Positions 4,231-10,969 are shown, numbered from the stretch's first letter. The stretch is DNA of 64,000 nucleotides from Pseudomonadota bacterium (GCA_021851875.1 JAJZQI010000008.1:48359-112358); one strand, 5' to 3'. Notes: generated by a model from the sequence alone, not told the origin. A program made the numbers and translations.

Positions 4231-4639
4231 CCTGCGCAGAAAATGCTAGGTCATTACAGTGATTTGGGCGGCACACGTCGGGAAAGAGAAGGACAGTGTC
4301 AGTGCTGCAAACAAGATAGCGGCAAACTATCTCATGAATGTCGAATCGCCTCGTGCATTATGTTTTGTAGCGACATTATGTAATAAAAAGGCTGTTGTGA
4401 GCCGTTTGAATGTGAACTGCATGCAGGCTTGCACAACATTGAGAAGCTGGCCCATCACGGGTATGGGCGGTAGCAAGAGGGCAATAAGGGGCATCACGCC
4501 CGTGATGCGGTCTACGGACCCAGTCAGTCGACTGTATTTCCTGAAGTGAGAATCACAAAACCATCTTGGGAGTGAAGCGGAATCGCCGCAGTGGGAAAAA
4601 CGTGGCCTGCGAAAAATCTAAAAAGGGGTTTTTATACAG

Positions 4640-4709
4640 CTTGAACGTTTGAATTCAGCGGACGGCAAAAGCGCAGCTTTTGACGGTCCGCTGGAATGAT
4701 TTGTTAGCT
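4640..4709 (-). repeat. attC site a (distal end of array)
   Basis: Read on the minus strand: AGCTAAC-AAATC-ATT(C)CAG ... CTGAAT-TCAAAC-GTTCAAG. The central loop is CAAAAGCTGCGCTTTTG. Confidence 0.75.
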
Positions 4710-5116
4710 TACTCATCCTTGCGCATGGCCTCGGAAATTGGTGAGAAAAATGCAAGTGCAAGAATGGCACCGTCAGTTAAACCTGTGAGAGAACCCACTA
4801 GGTTGTCTAATGGGACAGTGATGGCCATACCGCTAAAGGGAACAGAGGCAACGCTTACTACAACAATGGCGAGTAGCAGCCAACGCCCCCAAGACAAGAA
4901 CAATAAAAGGCCAATAGAAGAGACAACTTTCCCAAGCCCAATGGATAGGTAAAAGAAGGGGTGTTGTGTCCATGAATGGGAGCCATACCCGCCCCACGCC
5001 AGGAGGTTGGACACTTCCTTGGGGAATGCTCGTGGCGAATAGGGCAAAAAGAACCAAAGCAGGTAGGAAACCAGCGAGGCCAAAACGAGTAATTGGAATA
5101 TGCGAGTGCGCGCCAT
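4709..5116 (-). CDS. Cassette ORF: small polytopic membrane protein (about 4 TM), function unknown
   Basis: ATG at 5114-5116 lies 5 nt after the attC-b core site. The stop TAA lies inside AGCTAAC of attC-a. Hydrophobic helices include IFQLLVLASLVSYLLWFF and LLLAIVVVSVASVPF. The 298-aa track ORF is an upstream over-extension through attC sites. Confidence 0.6.
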   Translation of the reverse strand: MARTRIFQLLVLASLVSYLLWFFLPYSPRAFPKEVSNLLAWGGYGSHSWTQHPFFYLSIGLGKVVSSIGLLLFLSWGRWLLLAIVVVSVASVPFSGMAITVPLDNLVGSLTGLTDGAILALAFFSPISEAMRKDE

Positions 5117-5121
5117 GTGAA

Positions 5122-5185
5122 AGCTAACGTTTAAGCTCAGGCGCGGCGCGCTTTTGCGCCGTCGCGCTGGAGCGCAGGGTTGGGC
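5122..5185 (-). repeat. attC site b
   Basis: Read on the minus strand: GCCCAAC-CCTGC-GCT(C)CAG ... CTGAGC-TTAAAC-GTTAGCT. Confidence 0.8.
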
Positions 5186-5208
5186 GTGAAGACAATCGGA
5201 GAGAGAGC

Positions 5209-5457
5209 ATGAAACTTGAACAAGTTGAGGTAAATAAAGAACAACTGAAGCTGGCAGAAGAAGCGCTACGGCGAGCAGGCGCTGAATTAAAAACTGCATG
5301 GACACTGCTGAAGCACAATGGGATGGAGCCGACGGCAAAAGAACTGGCAGACACTGTGCTTGATGTGGAAATTTCAGCGGATCAACTGCGCGAATTTTTG
5401 ACGCCCAACGTTCAAGGTAACCGGCCTGCCGCGCTTTTTGCGGCAGGTCCGGGTTGA
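5209..5457 (+). CDS. Inverted cassette ORF: 82-aa helical, charged protein, function unknown
   Basis: GGAGAG sits 5 nt upstream of the ATG. The composition is protein-like (MKLEQVEVNKEQLKLAEEALRRAGAELK...). The 3' end runs into attC-c. Confidence 0.45.
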   Translation: MKLEQVEVNKEQLKLAEEALRRAGAELKTAWTLLKHNGMEPTAKELADTVLDVEISADQLREFLTPNVQGNRPAALFAAGPG

Positions 5458-5471
5458 CCGCAGGGTTGGGC
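5403..5471 (-). repeat. attC site c
   Basis: Read on the minus strand: GCCCAAC-CCTGC-GGT(C)AACC ... GGTTACC-TTGAAC-GTTGGGC. Confidence 0.8.
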
Positions 5472-5477
5472 GTCGCG

Positions 5478-5882
5478 CTACCGAGAGAGGGCATACCGTA
5501 GGCCATAGCCACCAAGAGTGGGTACGAACACGAAGGCCGCTTTTGAGTACCAACGCGCATACCACATGGGCTCGTCGCCAAGCGAAAACCCGAATTGGAT
5601 TTCACCGGTTGCTTGAGCGGACCAGTAATCGAGTGCAGGGAAGAAAGCCCAGACTAGACCACCTATCAGAGCTGGAATTACTTGACCAAGGGACAACACG
5701 TCAAATTTCAGCAGCGCGATACAGACGGCAAGTACTCCTCCAACTCGAAGGAGAACAGAGAGGCTGGTTTCAAAATTGACGTTGATTGCGCCGGAAAACT
5801 TCCAGACTCCGAGAGCCAGCAGGCCGACGACAACTACTGCGATTACGACAAAAGCGTTTTCATCATTTGAACTGTTGCTCAC
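5478..5882 (-). CDS. Cassette ORF: small polytopic membrane protein, function unknown
   Basis: GTG at 5880-5882 is preceded by AAGGAGG with a 7-nt spacer. Hydrophobic spans include FVVIAVVVVGLLALGVW and VGGVLAVCIALL. The TTG start in the track lies inside attC-d. Confidence 0.6.
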   Translation of the reverse strand: MSNSSNDENAFVVIAVVVVGLLALGVWKFSGAINVNFETSLSVLLRVGGVLAVCIALLKFDVLSLGQVIPALIGGLVWAFFPALDYWSAQATGEIQFGFSLGDEPMWYARWYSKAAFVFVPTLGGYGLRYALSR

Positions 5883-5909
5883 TGCAATGCCTCCTTGGAG
5901 AAATGAGAT

Positions 5910-5982
5910 GCCCAACGTCAAAGCTCAGGGGCAGGACAAAAGCGCAGCTTTTGGCCTGTCCCTCTGGAGCGCCGTGTTGGGC
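5910..5982 (-). repeat. attC site d
   Basis: Read on the minus strand: GCCCAAC-ACGGC-GCT(C)CAG ... CTGAGC-TTTGAC-GTTGGGC. The loop is identical to that of site a. Confidence 0.8.
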
Positions 5983-6007
5983 GACATTGACTCACCATGT
6001 ACGCAGC

Positions 6008-6262
6008 TTATTTGATTACAGCTAACCAAGCCGCAACTGCACTTACAAGTGAGGCAACAGCAGAAAATACGGCCACCAGCCAAAGACGGTGCTCACGCAG
6101 GTGCCGTTCAGCTTCCAGTACCCGGCGTTGTAATTCATAGTCATCAGCAATTATCGGCACGTTCCCACGGCCTGGAACGACTACCGACTGGTCTGTTTCC
6201 ATGATGACACCCAATTGCTCAGCTCTTTTTCGTAGCGCATCGCCGACGAGAAGTTTTTTCAT
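6008..6262 (-). CDS. Cassette ORF: 84-aa tail-anchored (C-terminal TM) protein
   Basis: The start is 2 nt after the stop of the M48 gene. A single C-terminal TM segment is present (LWLVAVFSAVASLVSAVAAWLAVI). Confidence 0.55.
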   Translation of the reverse strand: MKKLLVGDALRKRAEQLGVIMETDQSVVVPGRGNVPIIADDYELQRRVLEAERHLREHRLWLVAVFSAVASLVSAVAAWLAVIK

Positions 6263-6264
6263 CT

Positions 6265-7500
6265 CTATTCACCAATCAATTGAACATAGACCGGGCGAAT
6301 GGAAACTGAGCTGTACCGAATTTGCTTCAACGGAATGCCGAATTCCTTCTGTTCGTAGGGCTGCATGGGAGACCATGGAATTTCATCTCTCATCAGGACC
6401 ATCTGACCATTCAGATATTCCAGGGCGACAATAGCATGCGAGATTTGCTTCCCGGAGGTGTTGACCGCAACACCGAATAAACCCCGCCCCCCACCGCTTG
6501 CGTTTGCAACCTGCAACCTTAAAAATTGGAGTCTTTGCGCAGCAAGGCGTTGCTGTTCCAGTTGTTTCGTTTGGCGCTTAAGCTGTTCCGTCTTGGCTTC
6601 CGTTGCCTCTACATAGGAATTTGCAACTGTTTCGAGCAGGGCCGCAAATCCGCCTCCTTCGCCAGCCTTGGCCGTTGAAGGTTTGCTGTACGAATAAAGG
6701 GCATTGTTCGTCAGAAGCTTTTCGTGCTCCGGGTTGATTTCGCCGGGAACAAGATATTGCTGTACCGCAGAAGCGTATTTCACCATGTTCTTGGCGCGAT
6801 CATCGTTGAGCGGGTGATCGAACATCATGTCGCCTGTATAGCTCCCCATCGCTTGGTGCATGCGGTTCCATACCCGGACACCCACTGAGGGGTCGTAACC
6901 CGCTAAAGCCAAATAAAGGGTGGAGTACTTGTCCGCTTCGGCTTCTTGGTTCGTGGTAAAGCTGGCGTCAAAGCCTTTTTCCTTTCTCAGCCCTTTGTCG
7001 GCGAGCTTGGCAATCGCCAACTTGCCTCCCTTCTCGCTAGCGTGGCGAGCGGACACATGGGCCATTTCATGAGCGAGAACAGCAGCCAGTTCGCTGTCAT
7101 CTCTGAGGCCAACTTCGCCCTGAAAAATTCCGGAGAAAACAAACATTTTTCCTCCCCCAATTGTGAAAGCGTTCCATTCTGGAGAATCCAAAACGTGGAC
7201 TTCCCAGGGTAGTTGCTTTCTATGCGTCACTGTTTTCAGGCGATTGAATACACGATTGACCCTCTCGTAGTAAGGCGTTTCTCCGTCAATTTTTATCCCT
7301 TTTTGCTTTGCTTGGGACAATATCTGTCGCTGCGCTTCTTCCGCTTGGCGGATTTCTTGCTCCTCAGAGACGAGATTAATCTGACGCTGGCCGGTTACAG
7401 GGTCACGCGACGAGACGCCATCACTGACTGCCATCATGCCTTTATCGATTGAGGCGCATCCTGTGAGCGCGACGACCAGAACAACAGAAAATAGCCGCAT
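6265..7500 (-). CDS. Cassette ORF: M48-family zinc metallopeptidase lipoprotein with an extra coiled-coil and beta-rich C-terminal region
   Basis: Lipobox LVVALTGC after MRLFSVV, HEMAH zinc motif, and downstream NQEAEADKYS...AGYDP. RBS GGAAAGGTGG lies before the ATG at 7498-7500. Confidence 0.8.
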   Translation of the reverse strand: MRLFSVVLVVALTGCASIDKGMMAVSDGVSSRDPVTGQRQINLVSEEQEIRQAEEAQRQILSQAKQKGIKIDGETPYYERVNRVFNRLKTVTHRKQLPWEVHVLDSPEWNAFTIGGGKMFVFSGIFQGEVGLRDDSELAAVLAHEMAHVSARHASEKGGKLAIAKLADKGLRKEKGFDASFTTNQEAEADKYSTLYLALAGYDPSVGVRVWNRMHQAMGSYTGDMMFDHPLNDDRAKNMVKYASAVQQYLVPGEINPEHEKLLTNNALYSYSKPSTAKAGEGGGFAALLETVANSYVEATEAKTEQLKRQTKQLEQQRLAAQRLQFLRLQVANASGGGRGLFGVAVNTSGKQISHAIVALEYLNGQMVLMRDEIPWSPMQPYEQKEFGIPLKQIRYSSVSIRPVYVQLIGE

Positions 7501-7565
7501 GTCGAACCACCTTTCCTTACGTGTCCTGCCCTCAAATATTGCTTGCATAGAACGCCTCTCTTGTC

Positions 7566-7631
7566 GCCCAACGTTTGAATTAACCGGCTGGCGCGCTTTT
7601 GCGCCAGTCCGGGTTGAATGATGGGTTGGGC
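7566..7631 (-). repeat. attC site e
   Basis: Read on the minus strand: GCCCAAC-CCATC-ATT(C)AACC ... GGTTAAT-TCAAAC-GTTGGGC. Confidence 0.8.
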
Positions 7632-7639
7632 ATAGCCGA

Positions 7640-8575
7640 CTACTCCATAAGCTGCAAAATGCCGAGAGCCTTTCCTGTTAACTCCCTTGTTGAGTTTGGC
7701 GTGATGTTGGAAACCCCAAGGCTTGCAAGGTCAGCCTTCACATCTTTCCAGAGGTAGTAGGTATCGTCAGAAGAGACTTCAAGGTAAAACCGTGTCCATT
7801 TGTCTTGGTCTTGGCGGTGGAGGATGGGAGCAGCTTGATATACATGAACGTATTTTCTGGTACCGCGTTTCTCAGTATATGCCTCGACAACCAAGTCACC
7901 CGGTTTTGCTTCTGATCGGAAGCGGGACTTGCCAGACCAACGAATTGAACGTACCTCATAGCCATCTTTTTCGACGTGCTTTTCTGCTTCCTCAAGCCCT
8001 TGTAGCTCGAATGACTCCTCGGCACTGGTGATTCGTTCGCTAAGCTGGCGCGTTGAAATAAACCACACGCGCGATTCACCAACAGTTATTTTCTTCTTGC
8101 TTTGGCGGCTAAAGCCGGAGGCGCGGACAACTGGCAGTGCTTCTATTCGCTGAAGAAACTCCTCAGTAACTTGGATGGACTCGCTCTTGACGTTCTCGAT
8201 GAATCCTTGAACCAAGCCCGCAATTTGAGAGTCGTCTGTGAATAATGAAGCTTCGCAGGTGCCGACACCTGCATTTTCTGAAAGATTCGCAGATCCAATT
8301 AACGAGTGGTTGTCGATGACGGCCACTTTAGAGTGCAATCCATCGAAGGAATAGAGTTCGGCTCCTTGATCGAAGAATGCTCGCAGAACTGAGGCCGATG
8401 TTAAGCCGCCTTTGATTGCATCATCGGATGCGTCACAGATAAGTAAATCGCCTTGGCGGAAATCAAGGTGTCGCGCTGTCACATAAGAAATGGCGGCGCG
8501 TATGCGTTTGTGGTTTGCCGATTGCTGAGACAACTCAGCCCACAGGTCATCACTCAGGAGCGTTTTCATAGTCAT
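7640..8575 (-). CDS. Cassette ORF: single-HKD phospholipase-D-family (Nuc/BfiI-like) nuclease with an unassigned ~150-aa C-terminal domain
   Basis: The HxK(x4)D(x6)GSxN motif reads LHSKVAVIDNHSLIGSANLSEN. The ORF fills the whole cassette between attC-f and attC-e. The start is ATG 8575 or 8569; the track's TTG start lies inside attC-f. Confidence 0.75.
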   Translation of the reverse strand: MTMKTLLSDDLWAELSQQSANHKRIRAAISYVTARHLDFRQGDLLICDASDDAIKGGLTSASVLRAFFDQGAELYSFDGLHSKVAVIDNHSLIGSANLSENAGVGTCEASLFTDDSQIAGLVQGFIENVKSESIQVTEEFLQRIEALPVVRASGFSRQSKKKITVGESRVWFISTRQLSERITSAEESFELQGLEEAEKHVEKDGYEVRSIRWSGKSRFRSEAKPGDLVVEAYTEKRGTRKYVHVYQAAPILHRQDQDKWTRFYLEVSSDDTYYLWKDVKADLASLGVSNITPNSTRELTGKALGILQLME

Positions 8576-8581
8576 AGAAAT

Positions 8582-8647
8582 GCCCAACGTGGAGTTGAGC
8601 GAGCGGAGCGCCGCAGGCGCGGAGTCCGCTCGAACGGAGGGTTAGAT
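8582..8647 (-). repeat. attC site f
   Basis: Read on the minus strand: ATCTAAC-CCTCC-GTT(C)GAGC ... GCTCAA-CTCCAC-GTTGGGC. Confidence 0.8.
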
Positions 8648-8942
8648 GCTGCACATTTACACAGCGAAGTTTCAATCGGCAACGGATTACCTTGACCAGT
8701 GCGGTGAGGTTGAATTCCGTGGCGGGTTTGAGCCGGAGAAGCTGATTTACGCCGACTGCTGCGGGAAACAACGGCCAGCAAAAGACTGTGTTGTGCAGTG
8801 CTACTACGATGGCCAGAGCATCTGGTGCGCACCTGAAAAGGGCTGCAAAGACCCGCAAGTGATTGCGGCGAAGAAGGCACGAGAGTTTGCGAATCGGAGT
8901 GCAGGACAAAAGGCTCGATGGGCGAAGGCATCTAACGTTTAG
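8646..8942 (+). CDS. Inverted cassette ORF: 98-aa protein with seven cysteines and a basic tail
   Basis: GGAGG (8636-8640, inside attC-f) sits 5 nt before the ATG. The seven Cys fall in CG..ADCCG..DCVVQC..WC..GC, followed by the tail KKAREFANRSAGQKARWAK. The stop lies inside attC-g. Confidence 0.5.
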   Translation: MLHIYTAKFQSATDYLDQCGEVEFRGGFEPEKLIYADCCGKQRPAKDCVVQCYYDGQSIWCAPEKGCKDPQVIAAKKAREFANRSAGQKARWAKASNV

Positions 8943-8993
8943 CTTAAGGGGCGCGCGGCTTTTCGCGCGTCCCGCTTGAAGCGCCTGTTAGGC
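8930..8993 (-). repeat. attC site g
   Basis: Read on the minus strand: GCCTAAC-AGGCG-CTT(C)AAGC ... CTTAAG-CTAAAC-GTTAGAT. Confidence 0.8.
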
Positions 8994-9008
8994 GCTATTG
9001 GAGGAAAG

Positions 9009-9200
9009 ATGAAACCGAAAGACATTATGTTTTCCGTGAACGAATACGACCGCGATGGTGATTGCACCGACAAGGGTGTATTCCTCCATTTCGGAGAAAC
9101 GAAGGTAAAGGCTGCGGACGGCATCAAGGAATTTGCCGAGATCGTGCGCCACTTCGAGGCGATGGTGGAAGAAATTGAAACCAACTATGCGGACGCCTAA
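9009..9200 (+). CDS. Inverted cassette ORF: 63-aa acidic protein, function unknown
   Basis: GGAGG at 9000-9004 sits 4 nt before the ATG. The stop TAA lies inside GCCTAAC of site h. Confidence 0.45.
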   Translation: MKPKDIMFSVNEYDRDGDCTDKGVFLHFGETKVKAADGIKEFAEIVRHFEAMVEEIETNYADA

Positions 9201-9254
9201 CGTAAATTAGGCGGCGTTGGAAAAGTGGTGTCACGCCGCCTAAATCTATTTATT
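9195..9254 (-). repeat. Degenerate attC-like site h (proximal boundary of array)
   Basis: The L'-spacer-R' half is intact (CGCCGCCTA-ATTTAC-GTTAGGC) and there is a 9-bp stem TAGGCGGCG/CGCCGCCTA. There is no extra base in L'', and the R'' position reads AATAAAT instead of RYYYAAC. Confidence 0.4.
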
Positions 9255-9368
9255 AAATTTATATCCATTAAATAACAATAACTTAATAATCGCATTTGCT
9301 TTTAACCCAACCTAAAAAAATGCGGATGAAAGTTCATGTTCTACATAAACATCCTTGCCCTTCCTGCC

Positions 9369-9397
9369 ATGATATGCGGACATTTGGATTATGACAA
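9369..9397 (-). promoter_or_regulatory. Candidate sigma70 promoter facing the cassette array
   Basis: Minus strand reads TTGTCA, a 17-nt spacer, then TATCAT, within the AT-rich gltX-array spacer. Confidence 0.3.
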
Positions 9398-9574
9398 ATG
9401 ATTGGATTTATCACTTATTTTCACTTCAACAAGAGCGTGCCAAAAGACAAAACAGAGCCCGTGGCCTTAGGGTTCTGGTCGCGAAGGGATAAAACGGACT
9501 AACAGGAATGGCGCAAAGCCGAGATACCGCATTAAACGGTATCTTGATGGCTTGCTTTGTGCCCTAACCGAAGG

Positions 9575-10969
9575 TTAGGAAGCGGACAGGGCGTTGAGCT
9601 GGCGGCGCAGGCGGGTCAGCACTTCATCTTTGCCGATGAGTGCCAGAACGGCATCGATGGAGGGGGTTTGCGGTTCGCCGGTGACCAGCACGCGCAGGGG
9701 CATGGCCACCTTGGGCAGTTTCAGGCCGTGTTCCGCGACGATGGCTTTCATCACGTCGTGAATGGCTTCGCGGGTCCAGTCGATGGCTTCAAAGCGGTCG
9801 GCCACTTGTTGCATCACCGGCAGAATGTCTGCACCGACGTGCTGTTCGATGACGGCGGGTTCGGCATCCAGCGGTCGATAGAAATACACGGCCGCATCGG
9901 CCAGTTCTTCAATGGTGTTGACGCGTTCTTTCAGCAGGTCGATGACCAGCGGCAGGGCCGGGCCATGGCTCGGGTCGCATTCGTCGCGCAGCAGAAAGGG
10001 GCGGACCAGTTCCGACAAACGGTTGCTGTCGGCCTGCTTCAGGTATTGCTGGTTGATCCAGTTGAGCTTTTCCGGGTTGAAGCGGGACGGAGAGCGGGAG
10101 ATGCCTTCCAGATTGAACCATTCGGTAAACTGGTCCATGGTAAACACTTCTTCGTCGCCTTTGGCCCAGCCCAGGCGTGCCAGGTAGTTGAGCAGTGCCT
10201 CGGGCAGGTAGCCGTCTTCTTCATACTGCATCACGCTGACCGCGCCGTGGCGCTTTGACAGCTTTTCCCCGTCGTGTCCCAGAATCATCGGTACGTGTCC
10301 GTACTTGGGCAAGGGGGCGCCGAGCGCCTTGAGGATGTTGATCTGGCGCGGTGTGTTGTTGACGTGGTCGTCGCCGCGAATCACGTGGGTGATTTGCATG
10401 TCCCAGTCGTCCACCACCACGCAGAAGTTGTAGGTAGGTGAACCGTCCGAGCGGGCAATGATCAGGTCGTCCAGCTCGCTGTTCTGCACAATGATCTGCC
10501 CTTTCACCAGGTCGTCGATGACAACGGCGCCGTCGAGCGGGTTCTTGAAGCGGACAACCGGTGACACGCCGGTCGGGGGCGTGGCGGTTGAGTCGCGCCA
10601 ACGACGGTCGTAGCGGGGTTTCTCGCCTTTGGCCATCTGCTCTTCGCGCATGGCATCGAGCTCTTCCTTGCTGGCGTAGCAGTAATAGGCTTTGCCTTCG
10701 GCCAGCAATTGGTCGATCACTTCCTTGTAGCGATCCATGCGCTTGGTCTGATAGAAAGGACCTTCGTCGTAGTCGAGCCCAAGCCACTTCATGGCATCGA
10801 GAATGACCTGGGTGTTTTCCGGGGTGGAGCGTTCCAGATCGGTGTCTTCAATACGCAGAACAAAGGTACCCTTGTGCCGGCGAGCGAATGCCCAGGAGAA
10901 CAGGGCAGTACGGGCGCCGCCCAAGTGCAGATAACCGGTGGGGCTGGGAGCGAAACGGGTGCGGACCAT
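9575..10969 (-). CDS. gltX: Glutamate--tRNA ligase
   Basis: N-terminal [18 protein letters not shown] (HIGH-type motif) and KLSKRHG (KMSKS-type motif). Confidence 0.95.

Follow-up and report, generated by a model that had tools for sequence, protein, structure and literature searches.

A bacterial gene cassette in which the gene for an exported peptidase runs almost directly into the gene for a very small membrane protein raises the question of whether the two products work together or simply travel together. The cassette considered here lies in a stretch of 64,000 nucleotides (nt) from a Pseudomonadota bacterium (GCA_021851875.1 JAJZQI010000008.1:48359-112358), hereafter the window, to which all coordinates refer unless they are preceded by the handle of another locus (L081 and the like). 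The original prediction for this region, made from the sequence of the window, envisaged a two-gene cassette encoding an M48 lipoprotein peptidase with an additional C-terminal module and, immediately behind it, a tail-anchored mini-protein, and proposed that both form a functional pair, such as a protease with its membrane substrate, inhibitor or sensor. The unit is a single integron cassette, delimited by attC sites, whose two genes are translationally coupled. How this coupling should be read depends on the nature of the two products, on how often and in what company their genes recur in other genomes, and on how strictly they depend on each other.

Results

A single cassette with two coupled genes

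Open reading frame (ORF) calling and a search for attC sites locate the two genes on the minus strand, inside an attC-bounded stretch (5983-7571), and uphold the notion of a two-gene cassette, since attC sites are found on both sides and both ORFs are present between them. The flanking sites (Table 1) present the expected RYYYAAC...GTTRRRY structure with internal palindromes. The R' core GTTGGGC (7566-7572) of the site belonging to the preceding cassette constitutes the 5' boundary of the peptidase cassette, and the initially proposed ends (5916-7571) can be taken as the true cassette limits because they match the R' cores of the two attC sites. The peptidase gene terminates in a TAG stop codon (6265-6267), which is followed by the dinucleotide AG and by the ATG of the small ORF, leaving a gap of only 2 nt between both genes. 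An origin of the two-gene unit through loss of an attC site between two adjacent cassettes was considered and dismissed, because the genes are just 2 nt apart.

Five attC sites of the window served to build a covariance model, which identified two further ones and brought the total to seven, all on the minus strand and between positions 4632 and 9001. The same model also detects attC sites 3' of the small gene in unrelated metagenomic loci, and L084, L126 and a cassette containing the small gene alone (L086/L149) have homologous attC sites behind this gene. The R''/R' cores, the imperfect palindrome and the orientation matching that of the genes are those of an integron cassette. No integron integrase or attI site was found adjacent to the array, since the last attC is followed by gltX (9575-10969), which lies about 570 nt from the array end. 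The sole integron integrase of the genome (TIGR02249, 484 bits) is located on contig C38 of an assembly comprising 2.68 Mb in 52 contigs, and the array is hence either of the integrase-less type (cluster of attC sites lacking an integrase, CALIN) or has been broken up by assembly.

A predicted lipoprotein peptidase with an additional C-terminal module

The first gene of the cassette may be read from two start codons. The first ATG, at 7548, yields an ORF of 427 amino acids (aa; 6265..7548), and the ATG at 7500 is preceded, 6-15 nt upstream, by a Shine-Dalgarno-like sequence (GGAAAGGTGG) and gives rise to a 411-aa product whose N-terminus, MRLFSVVLVVALTGC, carries the lipobox LTGC. This lipobox matches the bacterial lipoprotein pattern [LVI][ASTVI][GAS]C, and its cysteine (Cys15) is conserved at 90% or above in 63 relatives. 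The cysteine is followed by Ala (+2) and Ser (+3), so that the Asp inner-membrane retention signal of the E. coli rule is missing. On these features, the peptidase is predicted to be a lipoprotein exported through the Sec/Lsp pathway.

All the motifs listed for the 411-aa product in the original prediction (LTGC, HEMAH, EAEAD..AGYDP) were recovered. The zinc-binding and catalytic HEMAH motif is followed downstream by QEAEAD...AGYDP, and the residues that define the M48 zinc site (H144, E145 and H148 in the former; E186, E188, A189 and D190 in the latter) are invariant in the 63 relatives. The Pfam M48 profile (PF01435) is matched with 72.4 bits against a cut-off of 20.3 (E 5.6e-20), covering only residues 79-240, and a profile of the peptidase family retrieves PDB entry 3c37 with an E of 1.6e-24. 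Scores against the NCBIfam models for LoiP (NF052399; 60.6 bits versus a cut-off of 365) and BepA (NF052400; 61.1 bits versus a cut-off of 570) lie far below those required, and the tetratricopeptide repeats (TPR) of BepA are absent. The distance to the NCBIfam cut-off means that the protein is not a LoiP orthologue, and on profile evidence it is a member of M48 that is orthologous to none of LoiP, BepA and HtpX. More than 100 full-length relatives with the whole architecture were found, down to about 30% identity, including proteins from Sedimenticola, Methylophaga and a Methylococcales symbiont. A scan of contigs with patterns derived from the generic M48 core returned almost exclusively unrelated M48 genes, with just two near ones (L001, which is partial, and L002, at 33% identity). 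Residues 10-165 of the peptidase (7006-7473) also match phrog_26636, a group of unknown function, with an E of 1e-25, and related lipoprotein peptidases therefore exist in phage or prophage genomes; for the pair as such, PHROGs yielded nothing usable.

Beyond the catalytic part, the protein continues for some 140 residues, slightly more than the approximately 130 for which a coiled-coil stretch and a beta-rich end had been anticipated. An AlphaFold2 (AF2) model derived from 63 sequences, with a predicted local distance difference test (pLDDT) of 92 and a predicted template modelling score (pTM) of 0.87, resolves this extension into one long helix (residues 283-323) and an immunoglobulin (Ig)-like beta-sandwich (residues 324-408), and the complete helix and sandwich module is conserved in the 63 aligned relatives. 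In Foldseek searches the core matches PDB 3c37 and the 6ait structure of BepA, and the sandwich weakly matches Ig-like domains such as 4gio, with a template modelling (TM) score of 0.54 over 81 columns. No Pfam family covers the sandwich, for which DUF2393 appears at just E 0.2. In a sample of 400 genomes of the class, the module was seen in one, which is the genome of the window itself. The suspicion that this module is foreign to HtpX, BepA and LoiP agrees with the NCBIfam scores given above, and the domain combination, as judged from sequence and model, is a new build of the M48 family. By analogy with the TPR domain of BepA, the module might dock the enzyme on a periplasmic or outer-membrane substrate or partner.

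A small, predicted tail-anchored protein from a large undescribed family

The ORF that begins 2 nt downstream of the peptidase gene encodes an 84-aa protein that, as originally described, has its sole hydrophobic segment at the C-terminus (residues about 60-83). Pairwise ratios of nonsynonymous to synonymous substitution rates (dN/dS) range between 0.05 and 0.14, with dS values up to saturation. Ratios this low denote purifying selection, and not the value near 1 expected for a spurious frame, so that the small ORF can be regarded as a real gene. Its most conserved part is a charged helix next to the membrane segment (Table 1), in which E43, Q45, R47, A51, E52, R53 and R56 are invariant, and the family as a whole is characterized by the motif ELQRRVLEAER..RE.RLW and a Ser/Ala-rich terminal helix. 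The AF2 model of the protein opens with a short helix, continues with a hairpin that is weakly predicted, and ends in a continuous helix spanning residues 41-83 (pLDDT 79-96).

Several sequence features shared by 61 relatives identify this product as a putative C-tail-anchored protein of the inner membrane. The best 19-residue window has a mean Kyte-Doolittle hydropathy of 2.3, compared with 0.25 for the second best, and the 61 aligned short members (76-89 aa) end within 1-9 residues of the membrane helix and have no signal peptide. Furthermore, the 15 residues preceding the helix contain 3-6 Lys or Arg, and about one is found after it. Some members of the family carry long extensions behind the membrane helix. 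Together with the charge counts, these extensions therefore predict an N-in, C-out topology; for the tail anchor as such, modelled as one long terminal helix, the orientation is derived from charge alone. The soluble part of the small protein is thus predicted to be cytoplasmic and to be separated from the exported peptidase by the inner membrane.

The family to which this protein belongs is extensive. A single-sequence search returned 38 relatives, a profile search at least 694 clusters at 90% identity, and an exhaustive search 318 clusters at 50% identity. The protein has no match in Pfam, NCBIfam, PADLOC or PDB, and neither Foldseek nor a profile search of PDB returned anything significant. 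None of the 120 listed clusters of the family contains a Pfam domain, and their source names read 'hypothetical protein', bar one Joint Genome Institute (JGI) label, 'phage protein D'. Longer proteins that include the region of the small protein contain no informative domain. The small gene was found in 2 of 400 genomes of the class and in 2 of 401 of a second phylum. On the strength of these searches, the small protein is a member of a large undescribed family.

Recurrence of the pair and exchange of the peptidase

Homologues of both genes are also adjacent elsewhere, as a functional pair would lead one to expect. With a junction of 2-3 nt, the pair recurs in five further contexts (six with the window): L081 (86% identity for the M48 peptidase and 94% for the small protein), L083 (82% and 80%), L084 (98% and 95%), L126 (87% for the small protein) and L119/L120 (82% for the peptidase), the small gene of the latter being uncalled and located with a hidden Markov model of the family. 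In L119 (1030-5542) the pair is found beside a tyrosine recombinase and an IS91-type transposase and only the first half of an attC site follows it; what was once a cassette has therefore apparently become fixed outside an array. A similar half attC site is seen in L081.

The same clade of small proteins is also coupled to a second type of exported peptidase. Relatives with 58-80% identity are encoded directly 3' of a zincin of the DUF4344 family (PF14247, E 1.6e-48) in five contexts (L082, L122, L123/L124, L125 and L127), with either a 2-nt gap or a 4-nt overlap. These DUF4344 proteins split into two divergent subgroups that share about 35% identity, and signal peptides are present in both, so that both types of peptidase carry N-terminal export signals. 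An hhalign comparison of the M48 and DUF4344 families yields a weak match (E 8e-4, probability 24%) in which four motif blocks appear in the same order (NAF, HExxH, E.EAD/EEDAAD and DHPLNDDR/DEHPFNEQR), which indicates that the partner was replaced by a peptidase built on a core of the same type. Within this clade, one or the other peptidase is present at every locus with enough upstream sequence (11 contexts), and the junction remains between -4 and +3 nt in all of them in spite of saturated synonymous sites. Judged from these sequences, the coupling with DUF4344 favours a functional link of the small protein to exported peptidases.

Each gene persists without the other

The proposal of a functional pair fares less well on dependence than on adjacency: recurrence in five other contexts and the coupling to DUF4344 speak for it, but the association is not obligate for either gene. 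Several observations weigh against a functional link. Five M48 relatives with 61-87% identity lack the small gene or any remnant of it (L118, from Sedimenticola hydrogenitrophicus, 87%; L140, 78%; L141, 77%; L121, 68%; L142, 61%). In a maximum-likelihood tree of the M48 proteins, those encoded next to the small gene make up a crown clade that also includes L118 and L140, and the deeper branches of known context are all devoid of it. From this placement, the pair can be considered derived, with the small gene lost again at least twice. The small gene of L084, the closest relative of the cassette, reads as frameshifted. On the other side of the association, about 30 more distant loci of the small family, plus two well-sampled members, have no neighbouring peptidase, and the pairing as a whole may stem from as few as two events, one of joining and one of exchange. 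In L084 (2168-2423), the frameshift consists of one base in a run of T and removes the membrane helix; it may reflect real decay or a homopolymer sequencing error.

Family members at 57% identity or below have no peptidase neighbour and appear in varied surroundings. In many bog contigs the lone small gene is placed between a glycosyltransferase gene and MacB-type genes, and one member of the family forms a single-gene cassette followed by toxin-antitoxin genes. In L139 (1435-3227), from another genome of the class, a 4-nt overlap links a family member to the start of a gene for a 487-aa protein with a signal peptide and an F5/8 type C (discoidin) domain, constituting a tight coupling to an exported protein in which the small gene comes first. 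In bog and acidobacterial contigs (L094, L096, L097, L100, L155) the small gene is convergent with, and 20 nt away from, a conserved gene of 174-215 aa bearing the motif FHSWTFGSALGELRGTFG. When distant family members were searched for a shared neighbour, only local synteny among near-identical contigs emerged.

The attC site that closes the window cassette provides a further comparison. Over its first 24 bases (5959-5982), it shares 20 positions with the attC of the solo small-gene cassette (L086 4269-4337/L149 2775-2843), against 13-17 of 24 for the other attC sites of the window array, a sequence resemblance that hints at the small gene and its attC being an old unit.

These observations underlie the main rival explanation, which holds that the two genes are functionally independent and that an old small-gene cassette gained unrelated upstream cargo. 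In such a case of pure hitch-hiking, the tight spacing would do no more than ensure translation within a cassette that lacks a promoter, and the link with peptidases would be a historical accident. In favour of this view, either gene is frequently encountered on its own, the M48 tree displays both gain and loss, a solo small-gene cassette with a related attC exists, and the two products are predicted to reside on opposite sides of the inner membrane. Independence does not account as readily for the nature of the exchange, in which the upstream gene was swapped for an exported zincin of the same motif architecture and not for a random gene, or for the persistence of the junction in all 11 contexts. 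We regard it as a serious possibility, short of a probable one.

The arrangement of the cassette also invites an interpretation in which the partner of the protease is its inhibitor or immunity protein, its membrane substrate or a sensor. Tight coupling directly 3' of a peptidase gene is typical of toxin-immunity and protease-inhibitor pairs, and the only mention of DUF4344 found in the literature concerns its occurrence in certain antibacterial effectors of type IV secretion (PMC6536674). Against this, the lack of a signal peptide, the 1-9 residues past the helix and the N-terminal location of the positive charges leave almost nothing of the small protein in the periplasm. Moreover, peptidase genes remain intact in the absence of the small gene, which is incompatible with immunity, and the small gene is mostly found without a peptidase, contrary to the obligate co-occurrence expected of such a pair. 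Topology and the persistence of each gene alone consequently disfavour a role as inhibitor, immunity protein or periplasmic substrate, and the roles of membrane substrate, inhibitor or sensor put forward by the original prediction are judged highly improbable.

Neighbouring cassettes and the possibility of a defence function

The cassette preceding the peptidase cassette in the array (7640-8587, minus strand) contains a single gene for a 315-aa protein of the PLD/HKD type, with weak similarity to DISARM DrmC and NucT nucleases; its C-terminal half is unassigned. The next cassette (5478-5921, minus strand) encodes a 147-aa multi-helix membrane protein with similarity only to ZorA2, at noise level (E 0.003-0.03). 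Between gltX and the first attC, a sigma-70-like promoter match (9369-9397, minus strand; TTGTCA, 17 nt, TATCAT) is directed into the array. It is the sole match in 4500-9600, where 3.6 would be expected, and hence represents no excess over chance.

Such company raises the possibility of a two-part envelope defence in which the peptidase would destroy incoming phage ejection proteins or toxins and the small protein would block or sense entry, in the manner of superinfection exclusion. Both genes are rare and patchy accessory genes, as attested by their frequencies in the sampled genomes (2 of 400 for the small gene and 1 of 400 for the C-terminal module), the array includes the weakly DrmC-like nuclease cassette, and members of the small family are found among toxin-antitoxin genes elsewhere. 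No PADLOC model rises above noise, however, with the peptidase reaching E 0.003 for Lit on the HExxH stretch and the small protein matching none; tblastn searches with the small protein found no homologue in phage or plasmid collections; and one member of its family resides in the stable chromosomal context of glycosyltransferase and MacB-type genes. A role in defence is for these reasons considered quite improbable.

Table 1. Features of the two-gene cassette and its flanking attC sites, in window coordinates.
Feature	Position	Strand	Basis and details
attC of the preceding PLD-like cassette	7558..7639	-	Cores 7566-7631; covariance model 82.6 bits
M48 family zinc metallopeptidase, predicted lipoprotein, 411 aa	6265..7500	-	ORF; PF01435
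Lipobox LTGC, residues 12-15	7456..7467	-	Sequence
HEMAH zinc-binding and catalytic motif, residues 144-148	7057..7071	-	Sequence
Long single helix, 41 residues (283-323)	6532..6654	-	AF2, pLDDT about 88-97; conserved in relatives
C-terminal Ig-like beta-sandwich, residues 324-408	6277..6531	-	AF2, six strands, pLDDT about 95
C-tail-anchored inner-membrane protein (predicted), 84 aa	6008..6262	-	ORF; unannotated family
Charged juxtamembrane helix ELQRRVLEAERHLREHR, residues 41-59, most conserved part	6086..6142	-	Alignments
C-terminal transmembrane helix, residues 60-83, Ser/Ala-rich, one residue after it	6014..6085	-	Hydropathy, charge
attC closing the peptidase cassette	5902..5990	-	Cores 5910-5982; covariance model 80.7 bits

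Discussion

The reading that we favour, and to which we give an even chance, is that the cassette encodes a facultative and fairly recent pair, consisting of an exported peptidase and a membrane helper that is functional and, at the same time, dispensable. A dispensable helper is favoured because the junction has been kept despite saturated synonymous change, because the small gene always lies downstream, and because one zincin has been swapped for another. According to this proposal, the product of the first gene would be an exported lipoprotein with an M48 core of the group that includes LoiP, YcaL and BepA, acting in the periplasm, where its helix and sandwich would dock on a target. The product of the second gene (about 85 aa) would comprise a short N-terminal helix and a hairpin, followed by one long helix in which a charged first half would sit at the cytoplasmic surface and a Ser/Ala-rich second half would cross the inner membrane (N-in, C-out). 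The small gene, which also occurs as a standalone cassette and as a lone gene, would have been joined in one clade, always directly downstream, to genes for exported zincins from two families that are distant relatives of each other, DUF4344 and the M48 variant. Co-produced with the peptidase, the small protein could assist it from the cytoplasmic side or within the inner membrane, either by contributing to the handling of the precursor at the membrane or by buffering the effect of the enzyme on the envelope.

A broader version of the facultative-helper proposal can be formulated, in which small tail-anchored proteins would constitute a portable, hitherto undescribed class of partners that serve exported M48-type zinc peptidases from the inner membrane, controlling precursor handling, activation or envelope consequences, and would be shuffled by integrons into two-part envelope modules, possibly with a role in defence. 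We consider this generalization unlikely, and put it forward as a speculation.

The literature search found no paper describing the pairing of such a peptidase with such a small protein. The cassette reveals a further M48 build, in which the core is joined to a helix and an Ig-like domain and which is disseminated as an accessory gene, and draws attention to a family of predicted tail-anchored proteins of about 85 aa, one clade of which is repeatedly coupled to exported zincins. If the coupling is functional, the locus would offer a simple and testable example in which an exported protease is assisted by a membrane protein facing the cytoplasm, and would illustrate how integron cassettes assemble multi-gene units. 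If it is not, the locus is an ordinary composite cassette.

BepA, YcaL and LoiP are periplasmic M48 peptidases that serve in quality control during assembly of the outer membrane, and each is defined by the part added to its catalytic core. LoiP (YggG) and YcaL are, in E. coli, M48 peptidases that are lipoproteins of the outer membrane. With these two the window peptidase has in common a lipobox signal peptide, an M48 domain with HExxH and a downstream Glu...AD, and export to the periplasmic side, and it differs from them in the additional C-terminal residues (about 140) that form the helix and the Ig-like sandwich. No small membrane partner is known for LoiP or YcaL. BepA (YfgC; PDB 6ait, 6sar), the best structural and profile match after 3c37, resembles the window peptidase in joining an M48 core to a C-terminal protein-interaction domain, but BepA, which is not a lipoprotein, carries a TPR array in this place, whereas the window peptidase features one long helix and a beta-sandwich.

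The small protein finds its closest parallel in topology among the E. coli proteins ElaB, YqjD and YgaM (DUF883), which are likewise small and possess a helical cytoplasmic part and a single C-terminal transmembrane helix. The resemblance extends to topology alone, since no Pfam match is obtained at E 0.1, and the small family has its own motif, ELQRRVLEAER..RE.RLW, and no known link with the ribosome. As a genetic unit, the cassette can be compared with the toxin-antitoxin cassettes of integrons, in which two coupled genes also occupy one attC-bounded cassette of a chromosomal array. Neither product of the window cassette is similar to a known toxin or antitoxin, however, and each gene often occurs alone, which is unexpected for an addiction pair. 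A further counterpart is provided by the DUF4344 pairs of metagenomic cassettes (L082, L122-L125 and L127). Their peptidase belongs to another Pfam family, has a type I instead of a lipoprotein signal peptide and is devoid of the helix and sandwich module, but these pairs share with the window the same clade of small proteins, the downstream position of the small gene, the tight junction, the attC site behind the small gene and an exported zincin, with its motifs in matching order, as the upstream partner.

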